DNA from: Candidatus Hydrogenedentota bacterium
GTDB lineage: Bacteria; Hydrogenedentota; Hydrogenedentia; Hydrogenedentales; SLHB01
NCBI GenBank assembly: GCA_963668025.2
Contig: CAXXTH010000018.1
Span: forward strand, 224,001-288,000
DNA: 64,000 nt
Direction of reading: 5' to 3'
Below, piece by piece: positions 1,362 through 20,570 of this stretch (the first letter of the stretch is position 1; the number at the start of each line of letters is the position of its first letter). The translations under genes and the position numbers were made by a program. Under the pieces are notes generated by a model that was not told the DNA's origin, did not search any database, and saw only the letters and a list, made by a program, of their open reading frames with translations.

Positions 1362-2507
1362 CTAGACATACCCAGAGGCCGCTGCTGCAATAGAATCCAC
1401 CGCCTGGCGGATATGTTCTTCTGTAGTGAAGCGGCCTAAACTGATTCGGATGGCCGTTCTGGCTTCTTCTTCGTTCATGCCGATGGCGTGCAGAACGTGA
1501 TTTGGCTCTGGATGGATGGAACCGCATGCCGAACCCGCCGATGCGGCTATGCCAGGCATTGACTCAAGGAGCGCTTTGGCCGGAACGCCTGGAAAAGACA
1601 TGCAACTGATATGCGGTGCGCGCGCGCAGGCTTGGCCGTGAATACGTGTACCGGTGATTTTCTCAACCAAGGCCGCCTCGAGGCCATTCCGAAGCTCCGT
1701 GAGACGGGCCGTCTCATGAGAGAGTTCTTGCATCGCCAGCTCGCAGGCGAATCCACATCCCGCTACGCCTGGGGCATTCACGGTTCCGCTGCGTAATCCC
1801 CGTTCCTGGCCGCCGCCGCTAAACAGGGGCTCCAGCCGGACGCGAGGCGCCCGCTCCCGCACATAGAGCGCTCCCACGCCTTTGGGTCCATGGAATTTGT
1901 GCGCCGATATCGCCAGCAGGTCAATGCCCATGCGGTGAACATCAAGCGGAATCTTGCCAACGGCCTGCGTGGCGTCGCAAAAGAACAGCACGCCCCGTTG
2001 TTTGCAAATACGGCCGATGGCTTCAATGGGATTGAGCGTTCCAAGGATATTGTTGGCGGCCATGGCGCATACCAGAAAGGTTTCTTTGCGTATAGCAGAA
2101 GCCGTTTGTTCGGGCGCGATACGGCCATGCGGGTCTGGCTGGAGCCAAGTGATTTCCCATCCGGCGCGCTCCAAATGGCGGCACGATTCAAGCACGGCCT
2201 TATGTTCGGCAAGGGAACAAATGATATGCCTGCCCCGGTTTGAATACGCTGCGGCAGCTCCCTTGATCGCCAGATTCGCACTTTCCGTGGCGCTCGACGT
2301 GAACACGATTTCCCGGGGAGATGCACCGAGCGCATGGGCGGTTTGTATACGCGCTTCTTCCACTCGATCCCGCGCCTGGCGGCCCAGCAGGTGTGTCACA
2401 CTGGCTGGATTGCCATATTCTTCACGCAATATCGAGAACATAAACTCCAAGACACACGGGTCGATGGGAGTGGTCGAGGCGTTGTCCAAATAAATAATGG
2501 CTTCCAT
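1362..2507 (-). CDS. iscS: Cysteine desulfurase, IscS/NifS type
   Basis: YLDNASTT, YGNPAS, SAHKFHGPKG (PLP Lys), SAGSAC (catalytic Cys). Confidence 0.9.
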   Translation of the reverse strand: MEAIIYLDNASTTPIDPCVLEFMFSILREEYGNPASVTHLLGRQARDRVEEARIQTAHALGASPREIVFTSSATESANLAIKGAAAAYSNRGRHIICSLAEHKAVLESCRHLERAGWEITWLQPDPHGRIAPEQTASAIRKETFLVCAMAANNILGTLNPIEAIGRICKQRGVLFFCDATQAVGKIPLDVHRMGIDLLAISAHKFHGPKGVGALYVRERAPRVRLEPLFSGGGQERGLRSGTVNAPGVAGCGFACELAMQELSHETARLTELRNGLEAALVEKITGTRIHGQACARAPHISCMSFPGVPAKALLESMPGIAASAGSACGSIHPEPNHVLHAIGMNEEEARTAIRISLGRFTTEEHIRQAVDSIAAAASGYV

Positions 2508-2625
2508 ATTATCTCATTTTCTTTAAATGCTGAAGGACGTTTTGCACCAGAGGAATACCGGCTACATGAATTTGAGCCTCGACATGCCGCTCTGAACGAT
2601 TGGGCAAGCCCCATCTCACAGCTCT

Positions 2626-3795
2626 TTATTCATTCGAGTTCCGTTTTTTATCCATCGAGCGGTGAACCGTTTCGATCCAACCGCCGCCCAACAGCATGTC
2701 CTCCGCATACACCACCGCCGCTTGGCCCGGGACCGCACAATCCACGGGCGTATCGAAAACAGCTTGAAATCTGCCAGGGCCAAGCAGATGGATCGTGGCG
2801 TCATATGCGTGGGATGCGTACCGAATTTGGACGCTCGCGCGGAAGCACTGAGGGACCGTCTGCTGCCATAGGGCTTCCGCCGCCTCGATGCCATCTGTAC
2901 GTAGCCGTTCCTGATGACCCACCACTAAGGTATTATGCGGCGCGTCAATCGACACTACATAAAGAGGTTCAGGATGGGCGATTCCCAATCCCCGGCGCTG
3001 GCCAGTCGTATACCGGGCGATGCCTTGGTGTTCTCCGAGCAGATGGCCATCCACGCTATAGATAGGCCCCGGCCTTAAGCCGCTTGCGCCACGGCGCTCA
3101 AGCAAACCGGCATAGCCGTTATGCGGCGCGAAACAAATATCCTGGCTTTCCAGCTTGGCGCGCATATCCAGACGGGCTATATCCGCGATGGCCCGGACTT
3201 CGCTTTTGCTGGACACCTCGCCCAATGGCAGCAGCAGGCGCTGCAACAACGCCTTATCGAGGGTAAAAAGGACATAGGATTGATCTTTTTGCCGGCATGC
3301 GGCGCGGCATATGGTCCACTCGCCCGCATGGGCGCGGATACGCGCGTAATGGCCCGTAGCAAGATACGCGGCTCCTATGGAGTCCGCAAAACGGAGCAAA
3401 TGCGCGAATTTCACTTGCGCATTGCACAGCGGGCAAGGATTTGGCGTACGCCCCTGTTCGTAATCATGCACGAAGTAATCAATGATAGGCTTGATGGAAT
3501 CTCCCGCGCTGACAACATGAAAGGGAATTCCTATTTGTTCCGCCGCCCGCCGGGCGTCTTCCGCATCATCTGGCGAACAGCAAGAACGGCTTCCGACGGT
3601 TTGTTCAATAGCCGTGCTCAAACAGAGAAACACGCCATGCACGTCATAACCCGATTCGCGCAGTAAATAGGCCGTAACCGCGGAATCCACGCCGCCGCTC
3701 ATGCCAACGACGACCTGCTTAGGCCCGCTGTAATGAACGCTTATTTCTTGGCGCACGGAACGTTCTCCTTTATTGAAACGCATGGCCTCGCTCAT
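2626..3795 (-). CDS. mnmA: tRNA 2-thiouridine(34) synthase, CxxC ('C-type') subclass
   Basis: MSGGVDS PP-loop, TPNPCPLCN, ATGHYA, KDQSY, ESQDICF, GQRRGLG, PGQAAV. Confidence 0.95.
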   Translation of the reverse strand: MSEAMRFNKGERSVRQEISVHYSGPKQVVVGMSGGVDSAVTAYLLRESGYDVHGVFLCLSTAIEQTVGSRSCCSPDDAEDARRAAEQIGIPFHVVSAGDSIKPIIDYFVHDYEQGRTPNPCPLCNAQVKFAHLLRFADSIGAAYLATGHYARIRAHAGEWTICRAACRQKDQSYVLFTLDKALLQRLLLPLGEVSSKSEVRAIADIARLDMRAKLESQDICFAPHNGYAGLLERRGASGLRPGPIYSVDGHLLGEHQGIARYTTGQRRGLGIAHPEPLYVVSIDAPHNTLVVGHQERLRTDGIEAAEALWQQTVPQCFRASVQIRYASHAYDATIHLLGPGRFQAVFDTPVDCAVPGQAAVVYAEDMLLGGGWIETVHRSMDKKRNSNE

Positions 3796-3908
3796 AAATA
3801 CCTATCCCCCGCTTTGCCGGGGGATACATGTTCGATTCATAGACGCCGCTAAAGTAGTAATTGGCGTTTCCGTTATGCTCCCGATGATGCAACGGTATGG
3901 GGTGTTTG

Positions 3909-5888
3909 CTACAATCCAGCCCCCCGCCCGCTTTTCAAGTTCCATACGGCTGCGGCCAGCGCGTCGATCTCCTCACAAGTGTTGTAGAACGCCAGCGAAG
4001 GGCGCACGGTGCTTTCCAGGCCAAAGCGGCGCAAAACCGGCTGGGCGCAATGATGGCCAGCTCGCACCGCAATCCCTTCACGGCTTAAAGCCTTGCCGAC
4101 ATCCTCCGTGCTGAAACCATCCAACACAAACGATAGGACGCTGGCCTTTTCCCGGGCAGTTCCTATAAGGCGCAACCCAGGAATACGCTGAAGCGCTTGT
4201 ATGCCATACTGCAGCAGATTATGCTCATATCGAGCAATATTCGCCATGCCGATCCGGCTGGCATAGTCAATAGCCGCGCCAAGTCCGGCGGCGTCAGCGA
4301 TGCTGCCGGTTCCAGCTTCAAAACGTGCTGGGGCATCCTGGTAGATGGTCTTCTCGAATGTCACATCCACGATCATGTTGCCTCCTCCTTGCCAAGGGGG
4401 AGTTGATTCGAGCGCCTCCGGTTTTCCGTAAAGCACTCCGATGCCGTTGGGGCCAAACACTTTATGGCCGGAGAAGACATAAAAATCTGCATCCAGCGCC
4501 TGCACATCCACCGGCATGTGGGAAACAGCTTGTGCGCCATCAACAAGCACACGGGCGCCATGCCGGTGTGCGATAGCAATCATTTCCGCCACCGGCGTGA
4601 TGGTTCCCAGCGCATTGGAGACATGCGCCAAGGAAACGAGCCTTGTTCGCGGTGTAAACAGCTTCTCGTATTCATCTAGCAGAATCTGGCCGCTATCGTC
4701 CACCGGAGCGACCCGCAAGCGCGCGTTCTTCTCGGAAGCCAATTGCTGCCAAGGCACAATATTGGCATGATGCTCCAGCCAGGTAATGATGATTTCTTCC
4801 CCTTGCTGGATATAGCGCCGCCCCCAGCTCTGGGCAACCAAGTTGATGCCTTCAGTTGCTCCCCGGACGAACACGATATCGCTGGCCGCGCTGGCGTTGA
4901 GGAATCGAGCGGCTTTTTCGCGCGCCGCTTCGTACGCATCGGTGGAACGCGCCGCCAATTCGTGTGCGGCCCGGTGCACATTGGAGTTCTCATGCTGATA
5001 GAAGTACGTCAAGCGGTCAATGACCGATTGCGGCTTCTGTGTGGTGGCGGCATTATCGAGCCATACCAGTTGCCGCCCTCCAGAAACCTGCTCTTGCAGG
5101 ATCGGGAAATCTCTCCGGACTGAGGCGACATCAAAAGGCGCGGCCAGCGTGTCCGCCAGTGGCTGCACGGCCGTTTTTGCGTCGAGCGGCTCCAATGCGG
5201 GAACTATGTCTAGTAGAGCGATTGGTCGGGCATTATTGATGAAACCATACGTGGCAGGCAGGCCCCGCTGGACATCATGCGTAACGGCTCCCGGAAGCTG
5301 CGGCGCGGTTGGTTCTTGCGGTTTTGCGTTTACCGGAAGCGGAACTGCCCCAGGCAAGGCAGGCGGTTTGCCAGATAATTCTGTTTCCGCGGGAAACGTC
5401 ACCGTCCCGCCAGGCGGAGCCGCAGGAACCGCCTTTGTTGGTTCAGAGGAAAAGAGCGGGCGCACGTCCTCCACGAATCCATAGGATGGGATCGAAGAAA
5501 AATCCGCCACGGAAATGCCGCCTGGAATGCCGTACACCCTCAACTCTGGAACATCAGGGAGCGCTGTTGGGGCTGGTGTGGCAGCGCTTTGAAGCGCTGC
5601 GGGAATTGCAGCCAGATCAGCTTCTGTCAAATCGCCAGCCGCATCAAGGCCACTCCCATATATGGAAAAGGGAGGCCGTGTTGTGGCGGCTGCGGGCCTG
5701 AACAACGCTGCTACATTTTCATTGTCATGGGCAGGCAGCGCTTCAAAAAACTCGTTTGCCAGCCGCTCAAGTGTGGCGGCATCAGGAAATCCCGCAGCGG
5801 CCGCGCTCAACGAGCCGGGTTGCTCCAAGTTTGCTCCTGCTTCCTGGGCCAATCCCACAATCGTGTCATTGAGATTATTTATAATCAT
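3909..5888 (-). CDS. Family 2A encapsulin cargo cysteine desulfurase: SufS-type catalytic domain with a ~250-aa Pro/Ala-rich N-terminal loading domain
   Basis: LERLANEFF motif in a low-complexity N-terminus; LDNAATTQKP, SGHK, RAGHHCA in the C-terminal domain. ATG 5888 overlaps the encapsulin 3' end (track start 5909). Confidence 0.92.
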   Translation of the reverse strand: MIINNLNDTIVGLAQEAGANLEQPGSLSAAAAGFPDAATLERLANEFFEALPAHDNENVAALFRPAAATTRPPFSIYGSGLDAAGDLTEADLAAIPAALQSAATPAPTALPDVPELRVYGIPGGISVADFSSIPSYGFVEDVRPLFSSEPTKAVPAAPPGGTVTFPAETELSGKPPALPGAVPLPVNAKPQEPTAPQLPGAVTHDVQRGLPATYGFINNARPIALLDIVPALEPLDAKTAVQPLADTLAAPFDVASVRRDFPILQEQVSGGRQLVWLDNAATTQKPQSVIDRLTYFYQHENSNVHRAAHELAARSTDAYEAAREKAARFLNASAASDIVFVRGATEGINLVAQSWGRRYIQQGEEIIITWLEHHANIVPWQQLASEKNARLRVAPVDDSGQILLDEYEKLFTPRTRLVSLAHVSNALGTITPVAEMIAIAHRHGARVLVDGAQAVSHMPVDVQALDADFYVFSGHKVFGPNGIGVLYGKPEALESTPPWQGGGNMIVDVTFEKTIYQDAPARFEAGTGSIADAAGLGAAIDYASRIGMANIARYEHNLLQYGIQALQRIPGLRLIGTAREKASVLSFVLDGFSTEDVGKALSREGIAVRAGHHCAQPVLRRFGLESTVRPSLAFYNTCEEIDALAAAVWNLKSGRGAGL

Positions 5889-6825
5889 AGTAATTGCCCA
5901 CATCGACATGTTCGAGAGCGGCGATGGCGTCGTCCACCAGCACGGCCGCCGAGCAATAGAGCGAGATCAGATACGAACCGATGCCTTGTCCATTGATGCC
6001 CATGAATCGAACGGACAACCCAGGCGTCTGTTCACCAGGCAGGCCGGGCTGATACAAGCCAACCACGCCCTGTTTTTTCTCTCCAACACGCAGCAGGAGG
6101 ATATCGGATTTTCCGCCATTACCTACAGGATTGGCCTCCCCATCAACAAGGAGCTTGTTGGTGGGAATGATTGGAATACCACGCCATGTCAGAAATGGCG
6201 AGCCAAACAAGGTGACTGTCGCAGGAGGAACGCCACGCCGGGTGCATTCGCGCCCGAAAGCGGCTATGGCTCGCGGATGGGCCAGGAAGAATGATGGTTC
6301 TTTCCATACTTTCGCGATCAAGTCATCCAAATCATCCGGGGTCGGCGCGCCTTTTCGGGTTGATATGCGCTGTGCGCGGGGAACGTTTTTCAGCAAGCCA
6401 TATTCAACATTGTTGAGCAATTCGTTCTCTTGCTTTTCCTTGATGGCCTCAATGGTCAATCGTAGCTGCTCGCGAATCTGGTCGAACGGATTACTGTATA
6501 AATCCGAAATACGCGTGTGGACATCCAGCACCGTGCTGATGCTGCTTAGCGTATACTCACGCGGTTTTTCCTGGTAATTCACAAATGTGCGGGGAAGAAT
6601 GCTCTCATCCTTTTTACCGCAAACTAAATCGATGGGCTTGTCTTCATCGACTTGGTTAAGCCGGAATGTTCCTGCTTCCAGCGGCTTCCAATCCAACAGC
6701 CGGACGAGCCATCGTGGGGTAATCGCGCCATATTGTGGCGGAGTTTTGGTGACATTGGCGAGCTGGAACGCCGCTGAGTCGCCGAGAATGTGGCTTTGCG
6801 CTTTTGCTGCTTTGATGTCGGACAT
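5875..6825 (-). CDS. Family 2A encapsulin shell protein (SrpI / major membrane protein I family)
   Basis: QLANVTKTPPQ..ITPRWL, PREYTLS, DLYSNP, PTPDDLDDL, FLAHPRAIAAFGRECTRRGVPP, LSVRFMGI; GGAG RBS before ATG 6825. Confidence 0.95.
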   Translation of the reverse strand: MSDIKAAKAQSHILGDSAAFQLANVTKTPPQYGAITPRWLVRLLDWKPLEAGTFRLNQVDEDKPIDLVCGKKDESILPRTFVNYQEKPREYTLSSISTVLDVHTRISDLYSNPFDQIREQLRLTIEAIKEKQENELLNNVEYGLLKNVPRAQRISTRKGAPTPDDLDDLIAKVWKEPSFFLAHPRAIAAFGRECTRRGVPPATVTLFGSPFLTWRGIPIIPTNKLLVDGEANPVGNGGKSDILLLRVGEKKQGVVGLYQPGLPGEQTPGLSVRFMGINGQGIGSYLISLYCSAAVLVDDAIAALEHVDVGNYYDYK

Positions 6826-6968
6826 GTCTGTTCTCCAATAAGGTTGTATCGAGTTTGTTTCGTACAAAATAAAGCTACTGGGTTTACCAATGTGTTTGCC
6901 TACATCCTTGAGATATCCAGCAAAGCCACATTCACCAAAAAAAATACATACTTACATATCTAAATCAC

Positions 6969-8450
6969 TTAATATTTAGGGGTGCTGGGGTCCACTTGGC
7001 CGGACCAGCCCAAAATGCCGTCTTTAAGATTTACGAGACGGCCGCCATATCCCGACGCGCGCAAATCATTAATCGCCTTAGCGCTGCGTATGCCTACTTT
7101 GCAAAAAATGACCGCAACACGGGCGGGGTCGATTTCCGCGGCCCGGTTTACGATTTGCCCTAGCGGAATGAGCTTTTCATAAGGCAAATTTGCAATCGCA
7201 TATTCATGTGGTTCACGTACGTCGATCAGTTGGAAGTCGCGCTGTTCATCGAACCATTGCTTCAATTCGGCTGCCGAGATCTCATCAGGTGTTCCATTAG
7301 CTGTTTCGCCCACGGCTGGCGCGGGCTGGCGGAGTCCGCAGAATTCCTCATAATCGATCAGTTCATGAAGAACCGGCTTTTCGCCGCAGATAGGGCACTT
7401 AGGATTCTTATGCAGCTTCATTTCGCGGAAACGCATCTTCCACGCATCAAACAACAACAGCCGGTTAATAAGCGGTTCACCGCCGCCCAAAATGAGCTTG
7501 ATTGTCTCATTAGCCTGTATCGAGCCAATGATGCCCGGCAAGACGCCAAGCACGCCTCCTTCCGCGCATGAGGGAACCAGCCCTGGGGGCGGTGGTTCAG
7601 TGAATAGGCACCGATAGCAAGCGCCCACTTTTGCCCAGAAGACACTTGCCTGGCCCTCGAATCGAAAAATCGAGCCGTATACATTGGGTTTACCGAGCAG
7701 CACGCAGGCGTCATTGACCAAATACCGCGTCGGGAAATTATCCGTGCCATCCACAATAATGTCGTAATCACGAATGATATCCAGCGCGTTCTGGCTCGTT
7801 AGACGGGTATCATATGCATCCACTTGCACGTGCCGGTTGATGTCGTAGATGCGATCGGCGGCTGAAGCAATTTTAGGGCGCCCGATATCTCTTGTGCCGT
7901 GGATCACTTGGCGCTGTAGATTGGATTCATCCACCACATCAAAATCTACGATGCCCAGATGGCCAATACCCGCCGCCGCTAGGTATAATCCCACGGGCGC
8001 GCCGAGGCCGCCCGTGCCGATCATAAGCACTCGTGCATTTTTCAGTTTACGCTGCCCTTCGACACCGACTTCTGGAAGGATTAGGTGGCGGCTATAACGT
8101 AGGATCTCCTGGTTAGAGAGTTCCGGCAATTTCATATGACTTGACGCTTCCGCGATTTCCGGGGCTTCTTCGGCAACGCCTCCAGCAATGGACGGCACCA
8201 CCATGATCGCAGCCCCATCAGCTACTGGCGTCTCCAATCCTGACTGATACCGGATGTCCTCATCGTTCACATAGATATTGACGAAACTGCGTAATTCCCC
8301 TTTATCATTGAACAAGTGTTTATTCAGTTCGGTATGCTGCGCTACGAGCTGGCCAAGCGCTTCGCCGACGTTTTTTGCATGCACGGCTATCTCGGGTTGA
8401 TTGCCAGTAAAACGGCGCAACGCCGTGGGAATCTGAATTAAAACGGGCAT
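6969..8450 (-). CDS. Fusion of MoaD/CysO-like ubiquitin-like sulfur carrier, MoeB/E1 adenylyltransferase and rhodanese
   Basis: 8450-8178 Ubl (IPTALR..FVNIYVNDEDIR..PSIAGG); RYSRH, GTGGLG, SNLQRQ, CYRC, PSCAEGG, CPIC; rhodanese DVREPHE/FCKVGIRS. Confidence 0.9.
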   Translation of the reverse strand: MPVLIQIPTALRRFTGNQPEIAVHAKNVGEALGQLVAQHTELNKHLFNDKGELRSFVNIYVNDEDIRYQSGLETPVADGAAIMVVPSIAGGVAEEAPEIAEASSHMKLPELSNQEILRYSRHLILPEVGVEGQRKLKNARVLMIGTGGLGAPVGLYLAAAGIGHLGIVDFDVVDESNLQRQVIHGTRDIGRPKIASAADRIYDINRHVQVDAYDTRLTSQNALDIIRDYDIIVDGTDNFPTRYLVNDACVLLGKPNVYGSIFRFEGQASVFWAKVGACYRCLFTEPPPPGLVPSCAEGGVLGVLPGIIGSIQANETIKLILGGGEPLINRLLLFDAWKMRFREMKLHKNPKCPICGEKPVLHELIDYEEFCGLRQPAPAVGETANGTPDEISAAELKQWFDEQRDFQLIDVREPHEYAIANLPYEKLIPLGQIVNRAAEIDPARVAVIFCKVGIRSAKAINDLRASGYGGRLVNLKDGILGWSGQVDPSTPKY

Positions 8451-8454
8451 ATGC

Positions 8455-8883
8455 TCATGCTCCTTTCCGTATTGGCTCTGGGTTGAAACGAGAACGATCT
8501 GCTTCCATTTCCCAAGAAAGCAGGCTGCCTGCTTGGCCTTGGCGTATAGCGACAATGACGTACGAATACGTTGGCCAGGCATGGTCCAAATCAAACTGGG
8601 ACGGCTCCGCCGGATGATCGGGATGCGAGTGATAAAACCCGACCACATCAAGCGCTTTCGAGCGGGCAAGTTTCTCTCCCGCCAGCAACTCATTCGGCGC
8701 TATTAAGAATCGGTTGTGCCGGGAGCCTGTATCGCGCGCATTGGCGATGGGATGTATTTCCACAACGCTTTTTCCATGTTGCGAATCAATACGGCCGATA
8801 AGCAGCCCACAACACTCATGGGGATACTCCGCTTCGCCATGCCGCCGGATTGCATCGAGATGCTCGGTTTGAATCAAAATCAT
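8455..8883 (-). CDS. JAB/MPN+ (M67, Mec-like) metallopeptidase
   Basis: YPHECCGLL and YHSHPDHPAEPSQFD JAMM motif. Confidence 0.92.
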   Translation of the reverse strand: MILIQTEHLDAIRRHGEAEYPHECCGLLIGRIDSQHGKSVVEIHPIANARDTGSRHNRFLIAPNELLAGEKLARSKALDVVGFYHSHPDHPAEPSQFDLDHAWPTYSYVIVAIRQGQAGSLLSWEMEADRSRFNPEPIRKGA

Positions 8884-8885
8884 GC

Positions 8886-9851
8886 TCAACCCTCCTCCCA
8901 AAAGAAATCGCCCACATAACGGGAACCGCTGTCGCAGAGTATGGTGGCCACGACAGATCCAGGCGGCAGCGTGCGGGCCAGCCGGATGGCGGCAAATACA
9001 TTGGCTCCTGAACTGACGCCGACAAACAGCCCTTCACGTCGCGCCAAGCGCCGGGCGGTTTCCTGGGCATCTTCGGTGGAGACCTCCACCTGCTCATCTC
9101 CCAACGAAGCATCATAAATGCCAGGGACAATCGTTGTTTCTAGATGCTTCATCCCCTCCAAACCATGCAGAGGGGAGTCTGGCTGCATGCGAATGGCGCG
9201 CAAGCGGGGATTAAGCTCTTTTAGCCTGCGGACCGTACCGGTGAACGTGCCGGACGTGCCCATACCCGCAACAAAATGCGTCACCCGCCCTTCCGTCTGT
9301 TCCCATATTTCCGGGGCCGTCGTCTCATAATGCGCCCGCCAATTTGCTGGATTGTTATATTGATCTGGATAGAAGTATTTTCCAGGTTCTTTAACGGCTA
9401 ATTCGGCGGCCCGAACCTGTGCTCCGTCAGAACTCTGCAACGGATCGGTTTCAATGATCTGGGCTCCATATGCACGCATAATACGCTTGCGCTCTATACT
9501 GGCATTCTTCGGAAGGCATAATACGACCTGGTAGCCCAGAGTCGCACCGAGCATCGCATAAGCAATACCGGTATTGCCGCTGGTGGCGTCCAGAATAGTC
9601 ATGCCTGGCCGGAGCCGGCCCTCTCGTATTCCTTCTTGGATCATGGACCAGGCAGGCCGGTCTTTCACAGACCCGCCGGGATTCAAGTGCTCGGCTTTCG
9701 CATACACTGCCACCTCTTCAGGCAAATCATCCGCCAGGCGCGTGAGCCGCAATAACGGCGTGCGTCCAATGAGTTCGTATAATCTCCGCCCAATCCGAAC
9801 TGGACCAACAGAGGCGGCGAACTGCGTAGGAAGCGGTGCGGCGCAAACCAT
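8886..9851 (-). CDS. cysM: PLP-dependent cysteine synthase (CysM-like)
   Basis: KAEHLNPGGSVKDR, ATSGNTG, DQYNNPAN, GMGTSGT, GVSSGA. Confidence 0.88.
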   Translation of the reverse strand: MVCAAPLPTQFAASVGPVRIGRRLYELIGRTPLLRLTRLADDLPEEVAVYAKAEHLNPGGSVKDRPAWSMIQEGIREGRLRPGMTILDATSGNTGIAYAMLGATLGYQVVLCLPKNASIERKRIMRAYGAQIIETDPLQSSDGAQVRAAELAVKEPGKYFYPDQYNNPANWRAHYETTAPEIWEQTEGRVTHFVAGMGTSGTFTGTVRRLKELNPRLRAIRMQPDSPLHGLEGMKHLETTIVPGIYDASLGDEQVEVSTEDAQETARRLARREGLFVGVSSGANVFAAIRLARTLPPGSVVATILCDSGSRYVGDFFWEEG

Positions 9852-12110: not shown

Positions 12111-12992
12111 ATGGCGATCGATCAACAACACACATTCGCACATCTGGTCCGGCGCCATCCGTGCTACAACCCGGAGGCCCATGGGCGGCTTGGACGTATT
12201 CATCTGCCTGTGAGCTCTTCGTGCAACATCCGGTGCCGTTTTTGCCGGCGCTCCTTCAATGCGGAGGAGCATAGGCCGGGGGTAAGCCGGAAAGTGCTGG
12301 CGCCGGAGCAGGCGATGAAGGTGCTCGAACGGGCGTTGCGGCTTTGCCCGGCGATTTCAGTGGTGCGCGTGGCGGGGCCGGGCGAATCGCTGGCGACGGA
12401 GCATGCGCTTATCACGCTTGCTATGGCGCATGAACGCCACCCAGATTTGATTGGGTGCTTAAGTACGAACGGCCTGCGGCTCGCGGAGCATGTGGATGCG
12501 ATAGTGGCGGCAGGCGTATGCACGGTGTCGGTGACCGTCAATGCCGTCGAGCCGGAGATCTTGCAGCATATATGCGGCGGGGTGGAGGACCAAGGGCGTC
12601 TGAAGACGGGCGTAGAAGGAGCGGAAACGCTGATATCGGCGCAGCTCGAGGGAATTCGTTTGGCGGCAGGCCGGGGCCTTGTGGTGAAAACGAATATGGT
12701 GTTGATTCCAGAGGTGAATGATGGCCATGTCGGAGCGGTGGCGCGGACGATGGCGGAAGCGGGCGCGAGCCTGATTAACGTGCTTCCACTCATCCCTGAA
12801 CATGAAATGGCTTATATGCAAGCGCCGGATTGCCATGCAGTGAATGCGGCGCGGGAAGTAGCGGAGCAGTATTTGCCCGTATTCCGGCATTGCCGACAGT
12901 GCAGGGCGGATGCATGCGGGATTCCAGGAGCAGGCGTGGATTTCGCCGAGCAGTTATACGAGCAGCGAGTGGAAACCTTTTCACATGGGTGA
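12111..12992 (+). CDS. NifB/MarB-like radical SAM cluster-assembly protein, no fused NifX domain
   Basis: HPCY, CNIRCRFC, EHRPG, AGPGE, STNG, TVTVN-like SVTVN, HCRQCRADA. Confidence 0.88.
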   Translation: MAIDQQHTFAHLVRRHPCYNPEAHGRLGRIHLPVSSSCNIRCRFCRRSFNAEEHRPGVSRKVLAPEQAMKVLERALRLCPAISVVRVAGPGESLATEHALITLAMAHERHPDLIGCLSTNGLRLAEHVDAIVAAGVCTVSVTVNAVEPEILQHICGGVEDQGRLKTGVEGAETLISAQLEGIRLAAGRGLVVKTNMVLIPEVNDGHVGAVARTMAEAGASLINVLPLIPEHEMAYMQAPDCHAVNAAREVAEQYLPVFRHCRQCRADACGIPGAGVDFAEQLYEQRVETFSHG

Positions 12993-13001
12993 ATCGAGGA
13001 G

Positions 13002-14477
13002 ATGGTGATTATGCCGCTAGTGAAGCCGGTGGAAACCAGGGAATCGCGTTTACAGTCAACGGTGGCGTATGGGGGCGGATGCCACGGGCTGGCCAATGGC
13101 GGCAAATGCCGTTGCCTGAAGCGCTTGGATAGGCGCTTTTCTCAAGCAACCGTATGCCAGGAATGGTACAGCTTGTTCACGCTGCTGACGGTGCGCAACG
13201 CCGCCGTGGTGGTACATGGGCCGGTGGGATGCGTGAGCAGCGGCGCCACCATGAACATTTTCAGCAGGCTGGGCCAGGAGGCCCGCGGGCATGAAAAAAT
13301 CCGTAGCGCGCGCTGGTTTTCGACCAATTTGGCGGAAATCGACACCATTCATGGCGGCGAGGCGAAACTGCGCGCCACAGTGCATGCCATCGAGCAGCGC
13401 TATCACCCTGAAGCTATTTTCATCTTTACGACGTGCGTGTCTGGAATCATTGGTGATCCGATGGCGGATATCGTGAATCAGCTTCAGGAAGAAGTGCAGG
13501 CGCGGCTGGTCCTCAGCCAATGCGAAGGATTTCGCACATCGGTCTGGGCGACGGGCTTCGATGCGGCGTTTCACGGGATCATTCATTACCTCCTGGAAGA
13601 GCGCCCGGAAAAGGAGCCGGATTTGGTGAATATCATCACACCGCTGACCGTGGGGCGGCTGGATGAATTGGAATTGGAACGATTGCTTCATCAATTGGGC
13701 CTGCGTCCCAATTTCGTACCGTGCTACGCAGGCATTGAAGATTTAAAACGTACGGTAAGCGCGGCGGCGACGGCTGCGGCTTGCTTAACCTATGGCGATT
13801 ATTTCGCACGCGCACTTTCGGAGCGGTATGGCGTGCCCCATATTCGGGAAGTCATGCCATTGGGCATTGCGAGCACGGATCGGTGGCTTCTGGAACTGGC
13901 GCCGCTTTTAGGAAAAGAAGCCGAGGCGGAAGCCTTGATTGCACGGGAGCATGAGCGTATCGCTCCGCGTCTTGAAGAATTGAGGAAACGCTTGGCGGGT
14001 AAGCGGGTGTTTGTCAGCGCGGGACAGGCCCGCGCCACCACGATGGCGGCCATGTCGAAAGAATTGGGCTTCGAGATCGTGGGGGCCACGATTTACCACT
14101 ACGACGAAGTAATTGAACAGAGCATGCAGCGCCTGGCGCAAACGTGCGGCGATTTCGCAGTGAATGTGGCGAATGTGCAGCCGTTCGAGCAGGCGAATTT
14201 GCTCCAGCGGCTGAAACCCGACTTATACATGGCGGATGAGATGACGACGGTATGGGCGGCCCGCCAAGGCATCGCCACAATGATGATCTACGACTATGGC
14301 ATGAATTATTTGGGGTACAACGGCCTTCTGGCCACGGGCGGGCGGATGGCGCAAGCAATGGATAATTCGAGCTTCAATGTGAAGCTGGCCCGGTACAATC
14401 CGCTGCCATACCGCTCATCCTGGTATAACGCGGACCCCTTTAAATACATCACAACGCCAGGAGGCCAGAACATATGA
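13002..14477 (+). CDS. Nitrogenase-like component 1 alpha subunit (group IV NflD, MarD-related)
   Basis: RESRL..FSQ..C52, HGPVGC77, STNL, GGEAKL, TTC145, CEGF..WATGFDA, C261, QPFEQANLL, LPY. Confidence 0.85.
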   Translation: MVIMPLVKPVETRESRLQSTVAYGGGCHGLANGGKCRCLKRLDRRFSQATVCQEWYSLFTLLTVRNAAVVVHGPVGCVSSGATMNIFSRLGQEARGHEKIRSARWFSTNLAEIDTIHGGEAKLRATVHAIEQRYHPEAIFIFTTCVSGIIGDPMADIVNQLQEEVQARLVLSQCEGFRTSVWATGFDAAFHGIIHYLLEERPEKEPDLVNIITPLTVGRLDELELERLLHQLGLRPNFVPCYAGIEDLKRTVSAAATAAACLTYGDYFARALSERYGVPHIREVMPLGIASTDRWLLELAPLLGKEAEAEALIAREHERIAPRLEELRKRLAGKRVFVSAGQARATTMAAMSKELGFEIVGATIYHYDEVIEQSMQRLAQTCGDFAVNVANVQPFEQANLLQRLKPDLYMADEMTTVWAARQGIATMMIYDYGMNYLGYNGLLATGGRMAQAMDNSSFNVKLARYNPLPYRSSWYNADPFKYITTPGGQNI

Positions 14478-15784
14478 GCACAGAACAGCATTTGGTCGAG
14501 AATCCCCGGTATTCGTGCGCGCTCGGCGGCGCACTGGCGACGGCCACGGCCATGCACCGGGTGGTGCCCATCCTGCATGGCGGCCCCGGATGCGGGCTCC
14601 AAGTGTATAACGGACAGAATTATGTAGCAGGCTACCAAGGACCGGCGTATATCGGCGGCTCGGCTGTGCCCAGCACGAACACAGTGGAGCGCGAAGTGGT
14701 GTTCGGCGGCGAACAAAAGCTCCATGCGCTGCTCCGCTCCGCCATCGAGCTTATAGATGGCGATTTGTACCTCGTGCTGACCGGTTGCACGGCGGAGATC
14801 ATCGGCGATGATGTAGCGGCCGTGGTGGCGGAATACCGGCGGGAAGGGCGCAACGTGGCTTATGCGGAAACCGGCGGATTCAAAGGTAATACGCTGCTCG
14901 GTTATGAACTGGTGTGGAAGGGGCTGCTGCGCCAAGTCGTGGAGCGGCGTCCTCGCGATCCCAAGCTGGTGAATCTATTTGGCGTCATACCCGCGCAAGA
15001 TATTTTCTGGGAGGGCGGCCTCCAGGAGATCGCCCGGCTGCTCGAAGCGCTCGGCTTGCACGTACATACGTTTTATACCAACCGGCAAGGCGTCGAGGAA
15101 ATAAAGAATTCGTCCGCCGCCGCGCTCAATATCGTGCTAAATCCTTGGCTGGGCGCGGATCTTGCCGCGCAGTATGAAAAAGCGTACAGAGTTCCATCGC
15201 TTCGGTTTGACGGCATGCCGGTGGGCCCCACGGAAACGAGCGCCTTCTTGCGCACCGTGGGGGAAGCGCTTGGCCTGTCCACGGAGGCAGTGAACGCCGT
15301 AATCGAACGTGAAACGCAGGCGGTGTATGACCAATTCGCCAAGGCGTCGCTGGCGGTGACGGGGTTTGGATTCCAGCACCGGGTGGCCATTATTGGAGAA
15401 AGCGGGCCCGCGCTCAATCTGGCGCGCTTTCTTTCCAATGATTTCGGGCAGATTTTAGCCGCCGTGGCGATCACGGACGATCCGCCGGAGCCGGTGCGGG
15501 AGCGGCTGGCCGCGGCACTCGGCTCTTTGGAATTCGGCCCTATTCCAGAAGTGATCTTCACCTCGGAGCAATCCACGATCTGGGAACACATCCGCCAAAC
15601 GGAGCCGACGTACATTATCGGCAGTTCACTCGATAAGGATCTTGCCCAGGAACTGGGGGTGCTGCATCTGAGCGCCACATTCCCAGTCACGGACCGGGTC
15701 GTGCTTAACCGTTCTTACACAGGGTATCGCGGCTGCGTGACCCTGGTGGAAGACTTCATTGCGCAAGCAATCACGGCGTTATGA
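14474..15784 (+). CDS. Nitrogenase-like component 1 beta subunit (NflK, MarK-related)
   Basis: PRYSC15ALGG, HGGPGC40, PSTNTVEREVVFGGE, LTGC105..IIGDD, ETGGFKG, FPVTDR, GYRG; ATGA overlap with NflD. Confidence 0.85.
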   Translation: MSTEQHLVENPRYSCALGGALATATAMHRVVPILHGGPGCGLQVYNGQNYVAGYQGPAYIGGSAVPSTNTVEREVVFGGEQKLHALLRSAIELIDGDLYLVLTGCTAEIIGDDVAAVVAEYRREGRNVAYAETGGFKGNTLLGYELVWKGLLRQVVERRPRDPKLVNLFGVIPAQDIFWEGGLQEIARLLEALGLHVHTFYTNRQGVEEIKNSSAAALNIVLNPWLGADLAAQYEKAYRVPSLRFDGMPVGPTETSAFLRTVGEALGLSTEAVNAVIERETQAVYDQFAKASLAVTGFGFQHRVAIIGESGPALNLARFLSNDFGQILAAVAITDDPPEPVRERLAAALGSLEFGPIPEVIFTSEQSTIWEHIRQTEPTYIIGSSLDKDLAQELGVLHLSATFPVTDRVVLNRSYTGYRGCVTLVEDFIAQAITAL

Positions 15785-15932: not shown

Positions 15933-17378
15933 ATGGGCGTCGCAGTAGCACCTGAAACCATTCGAGCAGAGTCATATGGCCTCAAGGACCAAATCCTCTC
16001 GCCACTCGAGACCTTGGCGCAGTCCATTGCAAACATTGCGCCAACGGCCACGCCGACGGTAGTCATTCCATTGGTGTTTGCCTTATCCGGCAATGGAACC
16101 TGGCTTGCCTACCTCATCGCCACCGTCGCCATGCTGTTTGTGGCGTCGAACATCAACCATTTCGCCCGGCGTTCCGCATCGCCTGGCTCGTTGTACACCT
16201 ATATCGCCACGGGGCTAGGCCCAAGCTGGGGCGTTCTGGCGGGTTGGTCGCTGGTGATCGCGTACATCGGATGCGCATCCGCCGTCACCAGCGGATTCGC
16301 CAATTACGCCAATGTGTTTCTCCTAGCTACGGTGGGATTTGAGCTTCCGCCAGTCCTTTTGATCGCGCTCAGCGTGGCGCTTTCGTGGCTGGTGGCGTAT
16401 AAGGACATCCAGCTTTCCGCACGGCTCATGCTGGTGCTCGAGCTGTCCTCCGTGAGCTTGATCCTGTTGCTGGTGGCCATCACCCTCGTGCGGTTTGGCT
16501 TCCGCCTGGATCTTTCGCAAATCACGCTGGAAGGCGTGACTCCCACGAGCCTTCGCCTGGGCTTGGTGCTCGCCATGTTCAGCTTCGTGGGATTCGAGAG
16601 CGCGACAGCATTGGGCACGGAAGCGCGCAATCCACTGCGCAATATCCCCCGGGCCGTTGTCCTCAGTGCGGTAATCGTCGGAAGCTTGTTTGTGATTGCG
16701 ACGTATGCCGAGGTCATTGGCTTCACGGGTTCTAGCGAGACGCTAGGTGCGAGTTCCGCGCCGCTGCATGTGCTCGCGGAACGAGGAGGAGCGCCTTTCT
16801 TGGGCCTTCTCGTGGACCTAGGCGCGGTGGTGAGCCTGTTCGCATGCACGCTCGCCAGCATCAATGCCGGTGCGCGCGTTCTCTTCCTCATGGGCCGCCA
16901 CGGCATTTTCCATGCTTCCGTGGGCGGCGCGCATGATACGAATGAAACGCCTCACATCGCCGTGACCATTTCCACCGTGCTGGCGTTCCTTCCCGCGGCG
17001 TTCCTCGCCCTGCGCGGCGTCGCCATGTTCGACATTTATGGATGGGTGGGCACTGTTTGCACATTGGGATTCCTGGTGGCGTACGTCATCGTTTCGGTGG
17101 CTGCTCCAGTCTATTTGCGCCGCCGAGGCGAACTACGCCTGCACCATGTGGCGGTGGCTGCGCTGGCCGTGGGCCTTTTGGTCCTGGCTATCGCCGGGAA
17201 CCTCTACCCCGTGCCTCCAGCTCCCCTAAATTGGCTCCCCTATCTGTATTTCGGCCTGCTGCTGTCTGGCGCCGTATGGCTCATGGTGCTGCGCTACTTC
17301 GCACCCAATGTGATCATCCGTATCCAAGATGACGTGGCGGCCATCCGTGAACGGTTCAGTGATGGGGGCGGCATTTGA
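15933..17378 (+). CDS. APC-family amino acid/amine permease
   Basis: ~12 hydrophobic segments, AQSIANIAPT, PGSLYTY, FSFVGFESA, EARNPLRNIPRA. Confidence 0.9.
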   Translation: MGVAVAPETIRAESYGLKDQILSPLETLAQSIANIAPTATPTVVIPLVFALSGNGTWLAYLIATVAMLFVASNINHFARRSASPGSLYTYIATGLGPSWGVLAGWSLVIAYIGCASAVTSGFANYANVFLLATVGFELPPVLLIALSVALSWLVAYKDIQLSARLMLVLELSSVSLILLLVAITLVRFGFRLDLSQITLEGVTPTSLRLGLVLAMFSFVGFESATALGTEARNPLRNIPRAVVLSAVIVGSLFVIATYAEVIGFTGSSETLGASSAPLHVLAERGGAPFLGLLVDLGAVVSLFACTLASINAGARVLFLMGRHGIFHASVGGAHDTNETPHIAVTISTVLAFLPAAFLALRGVAMFDIYGWVGTVCTLGFLVAYVIVSVAAPVYLRRRGELRLHHVAVAALAVGLLVLAIAGNLYPVPPAPLNWLPYLYFGLLLSGAVWLMVLRYFAPNVIIRIQDDVAAIRERFSDGGGI

Positions 17379-17706: not shown

Positions 17707-19266
17707 ATGACGAAACGAATCTTATTTCTAACGCTGCTGGCCGGACTTTTGCCGCTGCCCGCCATAGCCGAATTGCAGAACGTCGAGATAGGCGGCAAAC
17801 TCCAAATACGTGGGAATTGGTACACCAATTATTTGGCCAGTCCGGATGGAGCCCGCCTGCGGTGGCCTGGCAATTGGCTTGCTGGGCGCGCCATAGGCTC
17901 CTCGGATGGAAGCATCTGGAGCGCCTTTTCCTGGGACAAAGACAGCAATAGCTCCCGCGATGTGAACCAGCGGACCCGGCTAAGCGCCAAGGCCGATTTT
18001 ACAGGTGAGGTGACAGGGCTCATCGAGTTCGACAGTTATGACACCTGGGGTGAGGATTTCCGCTCGAACCACATCACGGGCGCGGATTTTCGCCAAAACT
18101 CGGCGGCGGATGATGTCTCGGTATATCAAGCTTATATCGAGGCGCGCGAATTAGGCGGATTGCCCCTTACGCTCAAAGTCGGGCGGCAGGAAGTGCTGCT
18201 TGGCAGCGGATGGCTTATCGGAACGAATGACACTGGTTCTATTTTCACCGGGCTTTCGTTTGACGCGGTAGCGCTGGTATACGCTCAAGACCCTGTGCAA
18301 ATCGTTGGCTTCTGGGCAAAAGGCTATGATGGCGGCCTTGCGGAAGAAGACGGCGATGTGGACCTCTACGGCGTATACGGCACGTACACCGGGCTTGAGA
18401 ACCAGGCCTTTGATGCGTACTGGATCTTGGGCCGCGATGCGCGCAGTGTCAATGACACCAATTTTAGCTGGGTGGGGGAAACCGTTGAAGGCTTTCTTGG
18501 GCTAGATGACTATAATGTTACCAATCTGCATACGGTCGGCCTCCGCGGAAGTGGCAAGATCGGCGCGTTTGATTATGAAGCGGAAGCCGCATATCAGTTT
18601 GGAGATGCAAGCCAGGAAGGCTCCCTGTTCAAGTTGGGCTTCTATGGCGATGACGATGCTTCTTTTGATGCGCTGGGTGCGAATTTGGAGTTGGGCTACA
18701 CATTCGACACCGCGTGGTCGCCTCGCTTGTTCTTGGGCGGCGCCTATTTCAGCGGTGAAGACAACCGCTCGACATCGTTCTGGGATCAGTTTAATCCCTT
18801 CCGGGAGCCCAAGGCGAGCGTGAGTTTTGACCGCTTGTTCTCGAACTGGGGCTACAGTGAGTTTCTAGATTTCACGGAACTCTCTAACATCTATGTCTTG
18901 AGATCAGGCGTGGTGGCGAAACCCACGGAAGCGCTGACCTTAAAACTGCTCCTCAGCTACTTCAATACGGTCGAGCCCTTTGAAGCCCCTGTAACCTTCA
19001 ATCTGGGTGGTTATCAGATTCCCATTGCTCCAGGCCTGGGGTGGTGGACCAAGGAAAATCCTTCGGATTTGGGCTGGGAGGCCGAGGTTATCGCCAACTA
19101 TCAGTACACCGAAGACCTGTCTTTCGAGGTGGGCTGGGCGCACTTGTTCGTGGGCGACGGCTTAGCCTCGGGCGCGTTTAATTCCAATAATGGACTGGCT
19201 TTTACGGGCGGTTCAGGAAGCGACGACTCAGATTACCTCTATGCGGAGACCAAACTTAAATTCTAG
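17707..19266 (+). CDS. Outer-membrane beta-barrel porin (alginate-export-like family)
   Basis: Signal peptide, QRTRL, YQAYI, KVGRQE, FDA, amphipathic strands, C-terminal YAETKLKF. Confidence 0.8.
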   Translation: MTKRILFLTLLAGLLPLPAIAELQNVEIGGKLQIRGNWYTNYLASPDGARLRWPGNWLAGRAIGSSDGSIWSAFSWDKDSNSSRDVNQRTRLSAKADFTGEVTGLIEFDSYDTWGEDFRSNHITGADFRQNSAADDVSVYQAYIEARELGGLPLTLKVGRQEVLLGSGWLIGTNDTGSIFTGLSFDAVALVYAQDPVQIVGFWAKGYDGGLAEEDGDVDLYGVYGTYTGLENQAFDAYWILGRDARSVNDTNFSWVGETVEGFLGLDDYNVTNLHTVGLRGSGKIGAFDYEAEAAYQFGDASQEGSLFKLGFYGDDDASFDALGANLELGYTFDTAWSPRLFLGGAYFSGEDNRSTSFWDQFNPFREPKASVSFDRLFSNWGYSEFLDFTELSNIYVLRSGVVAKPTEALTLKLLLSYFNTVEPFEAPVTFNLGGYQIPIAPGLGWWTKENPSDLGWEAEVIANYQYTEDLSFEVGWAHLFVGDGLASGAFNSNNGLAFTGGSGSDDSDYLYAETKLKF

Positions 19267-19340
19267 ATAAGCGCGGAATGGCGGAGCGCCAGGCTTCTTA
19301 ATACGGAAAAGAATGGCGCTCCGCCCTAAGGAGAAGCGTT

Positions 19341-19679
19341 ATGGCGGTGCGGATTGCTATCACGAGCATAGACAATGTGCTGGTCGAACAGCACTTTGGC
19401 GCAGCGGTGCGTTTTCAAGTATATGAAATCGGAGCAGGTGAATACCGCTTCATAGAAGCGCGCGACACATCGCCTTCTTGTGATCGTGGCGAAACCAACG
19501 CCGCCAGGAGAATCCATCACGTGCTTGATGCGCTTTCAGACTGCACGGCCGTGCTGGCGAGCTGCATAGGCCCATGCGCCGCCCAGGAATTACAGGCGCG
19601 AGGAATGCGCTATTACATCACGTATGAATATATTGAAACAGCACTGAGAAAATTGATAACGCAAAAAGTATTCGCTTAG
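19341..19679 (+). CDS. NifB/NifX-family cluster-binding protein
   Basis: RIAITS..VEQHFGAA..F.VY, LSDCTAVL..IGP. Confidence 0.85.
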   Translation: MAVRIAITSIDNVLVEQHFGAAVRFQVYEIGAGEYRFIEARDTSPSCDRGETNAARRIHHVLDALSDCTAVLASCIGPCAAQELQARGMRYYITYEYIETALRKLITQKVFA

Positions 19680-19694
19680 CGGAAAGGGGTTGCA

Positions 19695-20570
19695 ATGTCG
19701 AAGAAGATTAAACAAGTGGCGATTTATGGCAAGGGCGGAATTGGAAAATCCACGACGACATCGAATATCAGCGCGGCGCTAGCCGTGGCGGGCTACCGGG
19801 TTATGCAGTTCGGCTGCGATCCCAAGAGTGATTCCACCAATACATTGCGCGGCGGGCATTATATCCCAACCGTTCTGGATTCTTTGCGCGAACATGAAAA
19901 TGTCCGTCCCGAGGAAGTGGTTTATCAAGGCTTCGGAGGCGTTTACTGTGTGGAAGCAGGCGGGCCAGCGCCCGGCGTGGGTTGCGCGGGGCGCGGCATC
20001 ATCACTGCAGTGGATTTGATGAAACAGCTCCATGTCTTCGAGGACCTCGATATCGATATCGTGATTTATGATGTCCTTGGAGACGTAGTATGCGGCGGAT
20101 TCGCCGTGCCCATCCGGGAAGGCATCGCCGAGCATGTATTCACGGTGTCTTCCGCGGACTTCATGGCCATCTATGCGGCGAATAACCTGTTTAAAGGCAT
20201 TCGGAAATACTCGCATGCTGGCGGCGCACTCTTGGGTGGTGTCATCGCCAACTCGATCAACAAGCCGTATGCACGGGACATTATTGATGACTTCGTATTG
20301 CAGACAAGCACAAAAGTCATCGAATATGTGCCCCGCTCCGTGACCGTGACCCAAAGCGAATTGCAAGGTAAAACAGTCATTGAAGCTGCTCCGGCGTCCG
20401 AACAAGCGCGCATTTATAGCAGTTTGGCTGAACGGCTTGTTCAGCACACCGATTCGCGCATCCCCACGCCTCTCGAAAACCAGGGGCTTCGGGAATGGGC
20501 GGAAAAATGGGCCGAAGTGCTGTTGTCCATCGAAATAGGAGAAGTGCAGGGAACCGCCGCCAGTATCTAA
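19695..20570 (+). CDS. Nitrogenase iron-protein-like ATPase, MarH-like
   Basis: YGKGGIGKSTT, GCDPKSDST, EAGGPAPGVGCAGRG, DVLGDVVCGGF; MQFGCDPK..NTLRGG and IAEHVFTVSS recall MarH rather than NifH. Confidence 0.9.
   Translation: MSKKIKQVAIYGKGGIGKSTTTSNISAALAVAGYRVMQFGCDPKSDSTNTLRGGHYIPTVLDSLREHENVRPEEVVYQGFGGVYCVEAGGPAPGVGCAGRGIITAVDLMKQLHVFEDLDIDIVIYDVLGDVVCGGFAVPIREGIAEHVFTVSSADFMAIYAANNLFKGIRKYSHAGGALLGGVIANSINKPYARDIIDDFVLQTSTKVIEYVPRSVTVTQSELQGKTVIEAAPASEQARIYSSLAERLVQHTDSRIPTPLENQGLREWAEKWAEVLLSIEIGEVQGTAASI

Follow-up and report, generated by a model that had tools for sequence, protein, structure and literature searches.

Why the genes of a nitrogenase-like (NFL) enzyme should lie beside those of a family 2A encapsulin (Enc2A), its cargo, and a set of cysteine synthesis proteins is the question raised by positions 1362-20570 of the window, the whole 64,000-nt stretch of contig 18 of a Candidatus Hydrogenedentota genome that was analyzed here and to which all plain coordinates refer. 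In this genome, designated G000, the NFL genes form a rightward run (the right arm), in which a maturase gene comes first and nflH last, and the encapsulin genes belong to a leftward run from cysM to an iscS-like gene (the left arm), accompanied by cysE, which points rightward. Gene identities were assigned from the list of open reading frames (ORFs) combined with Pfam, NCBIfam, and PDB searches; the ORFs have exactly the limits given in the initial annotation, every function named there was recovered, and the claim that both arms are related to sulfur is borne out by these identities (Table 1). We read the region as a sulfur acquisition and sulfur economy neighborhood of an anaerobe that appears to lack assimilatory sulfate reduction, with a probability of about 0.5.

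The host itself is in line with such a reading. Profiles for NIR_SIR, PAPS_reduct, and COX1 (heme-copper oxidase) found no match in G000, which is 93.75% complete, while they did match in control genomes. This fits an anaerobe unable to reduce sulfate, and the bacterium appears to live without assimilatory sulfate reduction on reduced or organic sulfur.

Recurrent linkage of nitrogenase-like and encapsulin genes

The initial annotation would have been contradicted if the two arms were never co-located elsewhere, but NFL genes do adjoin Enc2A and desulfurase genes in a Solibacteraceae metagenome-assembled genome (MAG; L007/L066), a metagenome contig (L031), and a Lentisphaerae MAG (L067). On a 5.3-Mb contig of the Solibacteraceae MAG, three nflDK pairs are followed within ~5 kb by rhodanese, desulfurase, and Enc2A genes, with a MetY-like gene beyond; the cargo-type desulfurase is 59% and the Enc2A 69% identical to that of the window. 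L031 repeats this arrangement up to the end of the contig. In the Lentisphaerae MAG, whose nflDK pairs are found on L009, a single-strand run with small gaps reads nifX, nflH, marB, PP-loop ATPase, cysK, cysM, JAB, ubiquitin-like protein (Ubl)-E1-rhodanese, Enc2A, Enc2A, desulfurase, and cysE, after which come a radical SAM/BATS gene and a Cys_Met_Meta_PP gene. The identities to the window proteins are 69% for CysM, 52% for JAB, whose gene keeps its place in the order, 65% for Ubl-E1-rhodanese, 64% for Enc2A, 61% for the desulfurase, and 58% over 315 aa for CysE, whose gene follows that of the desulfurase in this MAG.

Some smaller features of these loci should also be recorded. The two Enc2A genes of L067 stand in tandem (6404-8347), the PP-loop (HUP-domain) ATPase encoded between marB and cysK has 276 aa, and the radical SAM/BATS gene after cysE occupies L067:12435-13265. 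The APC permease of the Solibacteraceae MAG is matched in two adjacent frames, as is one of its NflK proteins (L007:5793-7162, L007:11474-12762, and L066:9233-10948); frameshifts or long-read errors may be the cause. A DDE transposase gene lies ~3 kb beyond Enc2A in this MAG.

The linkage stands out against the rarity of its parts. Enc2A was found in three of the five genomes examined that possess an NflD of the same clade as that of the window (the Asp clade, see below), G000 included, always beside NFL genes, and the two gene sets are adjacent in 3/3 genomes having both; four genomes with NflDs of other clades contain no Enc2A. Among 40 relatives of G000, NflD occurs in none and Enc2A in two, and only one of 135 genomes of the phylum has NflD. 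Sixty relatives each of the Solibacteraceae and Lentisphaerae MAGs gave no NflD in either set and no Enc2A, or one if a partial 23.7-bit match is counted. In the pooled relatives the frequencies are thus 0/160 for NflD and 2-3/160 for Enc2A. Fisher tests give p = 0.0001-0.0003 when the discovery genome is counted and p = 0.003-0.004 when it is left out, values that exaggerate the significance because related genomes are not independent. The coupling of NFL genes with the encapsulin/cysteine cassette is recurrent and probably functional.

Several findings, however, weigh against reading the region as one neighborhood with a common purpose. Enc2A was not found in two of the five Asp-clade genomes (G043 and G138) and is present in only 2/16 Asp-clade loci, although many of these are short. 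Gene order differs among the three linked arrangements, so they do not represent one conserved operon, and the linked Enc2A proteins are 64-69% identical, no closer than the 65% shared with a relative that lacks NFL genes. These differing orders, together with such limited likeness of the shells, point to repeated juxtaposition rather than to one recently moved block. G025, a relative from the same order, lacks NflD yet encodes the desulfurase, part of an encapsulin, and a Ubl-E1-rhodanese fusion with 78% identity, which means that the left arm can work alone. In the window itself the arms are divergent and are separated by 1.1 kb that is AT-rich and contains a miniature inverted-repeat transposable element (MITE); in the two best-matching sequencing runs (X1 and X2), Logan contigs stop at 11061-11080 and resume at 11632, and none spans the interval.

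Part of this evidence would suit another explanation, which we regard as possible though unlikely: the arms might be two independent sulfur-starvation modules that share a neighborhood through common regulation or joint horizontal spread, with no sulfur passing between them. The encapsulin would then act as it does in Acinetobacter or Synechococcus, and the NFL enzyme would feed cysteine and methionine synthesis directly. The left arm or its core exists without NFL genes not only in G025 but also in G039, Asp-clade NFL clusters without Enc2A include L030 and L033, which extend over 20 kb, in addition to those of G043 and G138, the order of genes varies among the linked cases, and NFL loci often carry cysK/cysM or MetY-like genes of their own. 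On the other hand, independent modules would not be expected to be so rare among relatives and yet adjacent in every genome that has both, and in L067 the genes for the NFL reductase and its maturase are embedded in the co-directional encapsulin run.

Table 1. Features of the region, in window coordinates, with the matches on which each assignment is based.
Feature	Position	Strand	Basis
IscS/NifS-like class-V cysteine desulfurase, 381 aa	1362..2507	-	Aminotran_5, 264 bits
Second, divergent MnmA (tRNA 2-thiouridylase)	2626..3795	-	All three MnmA domains
Hairpin between cargo desulfurase and mnmA, terminator-like, weak T tail	3803..3826	-	9-bp stem, 6 G-C pairs; hint only
Encapsulin cargo, SufS-type cysteine desulfurase	3909..5909	-	Aminotran_5 at residues 282-651, 489.5 bits; start codon uncertain
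Family 2A encapsulin shell, SrpI-like, no cNMP domain	5875..6867	-	PF19307, 355 bits, only Pfam match; 330 aa
ThiS/MoaD-like Ubl + E1 adenylyltransferase + rhodanese, one frame	6969..8450	-	ThiS, ThiF, Rhodanese; NCBIfam MoeZ, 501 bits
JAB/JAMM peptidase, Mec-like	8455..8901	-	Prok-JAB, 93.7 bits
CysM-type cysteine synthase	8886..9851	-	PALP, 257 bits; NCBIfam cysM, 366 bits, below cut-off of 394.2
Sigma-70-like promoter match upstream of cysM	9983..10012	-	TTGACA-18-TAGAAT, 11/12 positions; consensus match, hint only
Serine O-acetyltransferase CysE	10049..10996	+	NCBIfam cysE, 157 bits (cut-off 210.65), and EpsC-type serine acetyltransferase, 141 bits (cut-off 150), both below
MITE, 307 bp, 28-nt terminal inverted repeats	11351..11657	.	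Inverted repeat 96% complementary
MarB/NifB-like radical SAM maturase, without NifX domain	12111..12992	+	Radical_SAM; NCBIfam nifB, 254.5 bits, profile positions 5-278 of 441
NflD, catalytic alpha subunit	13002..14477	+	Best PDB match R. rubrum MarD (9fmg_A), 302 bits; next chain 120 bits
NflK, beta subunit	14474..15784	+	PDB MarK (9d9u_C), 320 bits
APC-family amino-acid-type permease	15933..17378	+	AA_permease; nearest NCBIfam BcaP and methionine/branched-chain amino acid transporter, far below cut-offs
Outer-membrane porin	17707..19266	+	Alginate_exp, 106 bits
NifX-like cofactor carrier (NflX)	19341..19679	+	Nitro_FeMo-Co, 70 bits
NflH, ATP-dependent reductase, Mar-type	19695..20570	+	Fer4_NifH, 332 bits; R. 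rubrum MarH (9fmg_D), 482 bits

Ligands, clade, and transport genes of the nitrogenase-like enzyme

The right arm contains, within 12111-20570, equivalents of the minimal gene set of a methylthio-alkane reductase (MAR), i.e., marB, marH, marD, and marK, together with nflX, and MarH is the only PDB chain that NflH matches at E<=1e-90. Using the ligand numbering of the mar1 and mar2 clusters in the available text of the structure paper (PMC12552129), an alignment with MarD and MarK places C52, C77, and C145 of NflD at C66, C91, and C158 of MarD, and C15, C40, and C105 of NflK at C32, C56, and C121 of MarK, which means that all six cysteines of the P-type (mar1) cluster are kept in NflDK. Likewise C261 of NflD, invariant in a 27-sequence alignment, is the equivalent of MarD Cys270, a ligand of the [8Fe-9S-C]-type mar2 cluster. 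The remaining positions are different. D412 of NflD aligns with MarD His429, and Arg428 falls on a one-residue gap. Arg428 and His429, both in loop I, have been proposed as a possible hallmark of MAR (PMC12552129), and His429 is stated, in the part of a second paper available to us, to be conserved in all MarD proteins of Group IV-C (PMC13753814).

The exchange is characteristic of a clade rather than of a single protein. The search for relatives of NflD at E<=1e-30 retrieved 98 proteins, 17 of them 61-71% identical to it, which together with 22 genome loci and 35 metagenome loci formed the basis of the comparison. In an alignment of 89 NflD-type sequences, Asp stands at the His429 column in 17/17 rows of the clade that includes the window NflD, and "RH" stands there in 15/15 rows of a second clade, the nearest to MarD; two members of the latter score 442 and 425 bits to MarD, compared with 302 bits for the window NflD. 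A maximum-likelihood tree of 85 rows, from which five truncated or duplicate rows had been removed, sets the 17-row Asp clade (Shimodaira-Hasegawa-like approximate likelihood ratio, SH-aLRT, 100) apart from the 14-row "RH" clade (SH-aLRT 100). The tree was built without a reference MarD, and the "RH" clade is called MarD-nearest with PDB scores as a proxy, a scheme in which no letter from IV-A to IV-F is assigned. Members of the Asp clade come from MAGs labelled Myxococcales, Solibacteraceae, Lentisphaerae, and Fibrobacteraceae. In L007, L009, L031, L032, L033, and L038, an Asp-clade DK pair lies beside one or two "RH" pairs with one shared X-H-B set, and this co-residence looks like substrate specialization among isozymes. 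G000, by comparison, has a single DK pair, as the only two matches in the genome are NflD and NflK themselves.

A sister NflD clade with 40-50% identity and "G-H" at the ligand column was observed in L010-L020, L022-L026, and L040-L053, which come from genome and metagenome contigs. MAGs with the labels Methanosarcina, Methanobacterium, Methanoregula, and Methanospirillum carry it widely, often in the form of two or three DK pairs, and in L013 it adjoins cysM and cysE.

NifE also lacks the His ligand, and a NifEN-like scaffold role for NflDK was therefore considered. It was rejected because G000, at 93.75% completeness, has no other DK pair that such a scaffold could serve, and hence NflDK must itself be catalytic. 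By the published hallmark, catalytic NflDK is not a MAR; judging from its residues and tree position, it belongs to a separate Group IV clade and works with H, B, and X proteins of the Mar type. The term "Mar-like" used in the initial annotation can thus be kept for resemblance and should not be taken as membership, given that the Arg428-His429 hallmark is absent and the clade is distinct from the MarD-nearest "RH" clade.

It is improbable, then, that the enzyme is a true MAR that converts dimethyl sulfide, ethyl methyl sulfide, or (2-methylthio)ethanol into methanethiol. The resemblance to MarBHDK of Rhodospirillum rubrum (Group IV-C; 9fmg/9d9u) is considerable: among solved structures, Mar subunits come closest to D, K, and H (302, 320, and 482 bits), the six cysteine ligands of the P-cluster and the equivalent of Cys270 are retained, the two-component layout recurs in a context of sulfur genes, the maturase is of the MarB type and the NifX-like protein has a gene of its own, and the set of B, X, H, D, and K genes agrees with the nflX/marBHDK layout described in the available text of PMC13753814. 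Nevertheless, the hallmark residues of PMC12552129 and PMC13753814 are replaced by a gap and Asp in 17/17 members of the clade, the paralogues that lie beside orthologues of the window NflD carry "RH" and score 442 and 425 bits to MarD, and full support is given to the split between the two clades, albeit in the tree that uses PDB scores as proxies for a reference MarD. In other loci, the Asp clade is often present as an extra DK pair next to an "RH" pair. Moreover, in the accessible portion of PMC13753814, MAR activity is described as little or none outside IV-C and as physiologically relevant only in IV-C. An APC permease is a frequent partner of the window clade, in contrast with MarBHDK, and volatile thioethers would not need one. 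A second known system, the isethionate NFL of Rhodobacter capsulatus (Group IV-F; PMC11423573), is similar in being a Group IV NFL that serves, under anoxic conditions, to draw sulfur from an organosulfur compound that is non-volatile and has to be imported, as far as the text available describes it. IV-F diverges at the ligands of both the P-cluster and the cofactor (PMC13474568, likewise available in part), whereas the window enzyme keeps the P-cluster cysteines, a comparison made by description only.

The two transport genes of the right arm differ in how closely they follow the NFL genes. Orthologues of the permease with 41-66% identity occur in 7/16 other Asp-clade loci, several of the others being only 1.5-5 kb long, and the protein atlas offers only generic APC permease clusters for the product of 15933-17378. 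The Alginate_exp porin family, in contrast, is found in 40/41 related genomes, with 2-10 copies in nearly every one and 6 in G000, and in 0/16 other NFL loci of the clade. General porins of the phylum probably belong mainly to this family, and the porin gene, a member of a native multigene family that is absent from other NFL loci, has therefore been recruited from the lineage into an acquired operon. The porin is a local addition, which does not support its place in the system as given in the initial annotation.

Encapsulin, cysteine cassette, and the proposed route of sulfur

The left arm possesses a shell gene, an adjacent gene for a PF00266 desulfurase with a long N-terminal loading domain, a rhodanese, and cysE, which are the components of a 2A desulfurase-encapsulin system. 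The best PDB matches of the shell are 8t6r_A (453 bits) and SrpI (6x8m_A, 448.5 bits), and 2B-type chains, which have a Crp-like domain and are 470-477 aa long, score lower than 2A shells. The cargo desulfurase matches 8kg1_A best (596.8 bits), only over residues 258-661; its catalytic domain starts from ~258-282, preceded by a disordered, Pro/Ala-rich extension of ~255-280 aa. In the portion of PMC10836720 available to us, the published cysteine desulfurase (CD)-encapsulin operon is described as an encapsulin and a desulfurase with or without a rhodanese and a serine acetyltransferase. The left arm agrees with this operon and extends it by a CysO-type cassette, which supports the initial interpretation. 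In comparison with Synechococcus elongatus SrpI and the Acinetobacter baumannii R-AT-Enc-CD operon of the same paper, as far as its available text describes them, the shell, the N-terminally extended desulfurase, the serine O-acetyltransferase, and the rhodanese are alike, but in the window the rhodanese forms the C-terminal part of a fusion with Ubl and E1 that is encoded with JAB and CysM, NFL genes are adjacent, and the host probably lives anaerobically and without reducing sulfate.

A protein-thiocarboxylate route to cysteine is formed in Mycobacterium tuberculosis by CysO, CysM, Mec, and MoeZ. The cassette of the window resembles it in encoding, in one run, a ThiS-like Ubl with a GG end, an E1 and rhodanese, a JAB peptidase, and a CysM-type synthase. 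It is different in that the Ubl is one chain with the E1: the Ubl ends with ...SIAGG and continues without a stop, so that its Gly-Gly is internal, processing is required, and JAB or another protease must free it. The presence of cysE also suggests the use of O-acetylserine rather than O-phosphoserine. In the fusion ORF, the rhodanese domain takes up residues 473-565. All 120 homologues among the matches listed share the three domains, and the fusion is accordingly common.

Taken together, the genes allow a route of sulfur to be proposed. An organosulfur compound would cross the outer membrane via the recruited porin and the inner membrane via the APC permease. The NflH dimer of the Mar type and NflDK, as a two-component, ATP-driven enzyme, would then cleave its C-S bond reductively. 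NflDK would hold two clusters, one of the P type and one of the NifB-co type, the latter built by the MarB-like maturase together with NflX. Because His is changed to Asp in this clade, a substrate other than those known for MAR would be expected. CysE and CysM would make cysteine, for which a Ubl-thiocarboxylate, by homology, might be the sulfur carrier, charged by the fused E1-rhodanese and freed by the JAB peptidase. The encapsulated SufS-type desulfurase might deposit the sulfur of surplus cysteine as S0 inside the shell, and the rhodanese-E1-Ubl route is a plausible exit from that store, in keeping with the proposal, made in the accessible part of PMC10836720, that the rhodanese possibly remobilizes stored sulfur. 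The two arms may also be regulated together.

Two points in this route add to those that tell against our reading. Import through the APC permease suggests that the substrate is probably amino-acid-like, but this is a guess derived from a generic permease; and a desulfurase that feeds a cysteine-making rhodanese would be circular unless a store lies between them. A bolder version, which we hold only tentatively and consider unlikely, is that the Asp-bearing NflDK clade is a new kind of reductase of the nitrogenase family with a NifB-co-type cluster held by Cys and a carboxylate, that it cleaves a sulfur amino acid, or some comparable organosulfur compound that is not volatile, after import, and that in anaerobes without sulfate reduction it forms with the desulfurase encapsulin a closed economy of acquisition, storage, and release in which rhodanese, E1, Ubl, JAB, and CysM return stored S0 to cysteine, a route that has long been sought.

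The last step of the route in the initial annotation, delivery of sulfur to 2-thiouridine in tRNA, has become weak, because mnmA and the iscS-like gene are not conserved partners: their counterparts are found in 0/16 NFL loci and none occurs in L066-L068. The desulfurase encoded at 1362-2507 is one of six strong PF00266 matches in G000. The mnmA in the window is a second, divergent copy, 44-46% identical to the MnmA of relatives, versus 52-56% for the other copy on contig 23 of G000. A hairpin separates this mnmA from the cargo desulfurase gene. The two genes are, like the porin gene, local additions, and their membership in the system is possible but unproven.

Gene clusters for nitrogen fixation include nifS, nifU, and cysE1, a parallel for the idea that the left arm might be there to furnish the NFL enzyme with sulfur of its own for building its sulfur-rich clusters. 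We consider this very unlikely. Two cysteine desulfurases and cysE do lie beside a maturase for an [8Fe-9S-C]-type cluster, and in L067 the genes nifX, nflH, and marB are directly upstream of the cysteine and encapsulin genes; but no NifU/IscU-type scaffold is present among the genes scanned, left-arm genes occur in genomes without any NFL, and the encapsulated desulfurase is sequestered from acceptors in the model described in the available text of PMC10836720.

Junction, surroundings, and meaning of the linkage

The junction of the two arms is given by the MAG assembly only. The MITE between them has 70 matches in G000, ~12 of which are near full length with 80-95% identity, and a further copy was noted at ~48805-49113 (G000:C18:272805-273113). 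That the adjacency is an artefact of two contigs misjoined across this element is very unlikely. Its many copies would allow such an error, and within the break of the X1 and X2 contigs there are only short pieces, with a summed depth of 700-840. However, 11069-11399 and 11468-11622 are covered, with 0-2 differences, by short pieces whose depth (6.5-8.7) is like that of the genome, contig 18 extends for 577,762 bases, and a random misjoin is unlikely to unite precisely those gene sets whose linkage is seen in two further phyla. As separate observations, the Logan contigs of the left arm end at 11061-11080, well before the MITE, and X2 and X3 each have a single Logan contig in which 11069 is followed directly by 20615, so that the 9.5-kb nfl operon is skipped; this may reflect a strain variant without the operon, but the short side of the join is 22 letters and is too weak to be used as evidence.

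The flanks have no relation to sulfur: a nucleoside symporter, Lon-like ORFs, and ABC genes lie to the left, and a metallophosphoesterase, an MFS transporter, and a fucosidase to the right. No tRNA gene was found in 1-26000, and there is thus no tRNA-linked island boundary in this part. An Rfam scan of the same part at E<=1 found no riboswitch; its single match, mir-670, lies inside the MITE with 31 bits against a gathering score of 95 and was rejected. Promoter and terminator scans gave no excess, with 18 promoter sites versus 14.2 expected from shuffles and 20 terminators versus 21.6. Just upstream of the window, a Lon-like protease gene (L076:14742-17025, contig 18 of G000) consists of two overlapping ORFs: the substrate-binding domain is in one of them, along with the first part of the AAA domain, whose remainder is in the second; neither matches Lon_C, and the gene may be disrupted.

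The initial annotation took the combination as one not known to have been described, and a full-text literature search, which did not cover supplements, found no paper that links encapsulins to NFL systems. Neither the MAR papers nor a 2026 review use the word "encapsulin" even once, and none of the papers that contain both "encapsulin" and "nitrogenase" concerns such a link, as judged by title and the start of the abstract. The Asp-bearing clade with its permease was also not found in print, again with supplements not covered. What is already in print, in the available text of PMC13753814, is the location of Group IV NFL genes beside genes for cysteine or methionine synthases.

According to the same text, only Group IV-C has a proven sulfur function with known substrates, and the other clades are described as open (PMC13753814). 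The Asp clade gives handles for a new anaerobic C-S cleavage reaction, namely a changed cofactor ligand, a dedicated amino-acid-type importer, and, in several genomes, co-resident MAR-like paralogues. In the accessible part of PMC10836720, the release of sulfur stored in encapsulins, and its purpose, are an open question. A rhodanese within a Ubl-activating enzyme, encoded beside CysM, is a candidate release route for that sulfur, and the link to an organosulfur-scavenging enzyme provides a physiological setting for encapsulins outside aerobes. The same pairing in two other bacterial phyla suggests one previously undescribed system by which sulfur is acquired and stored.

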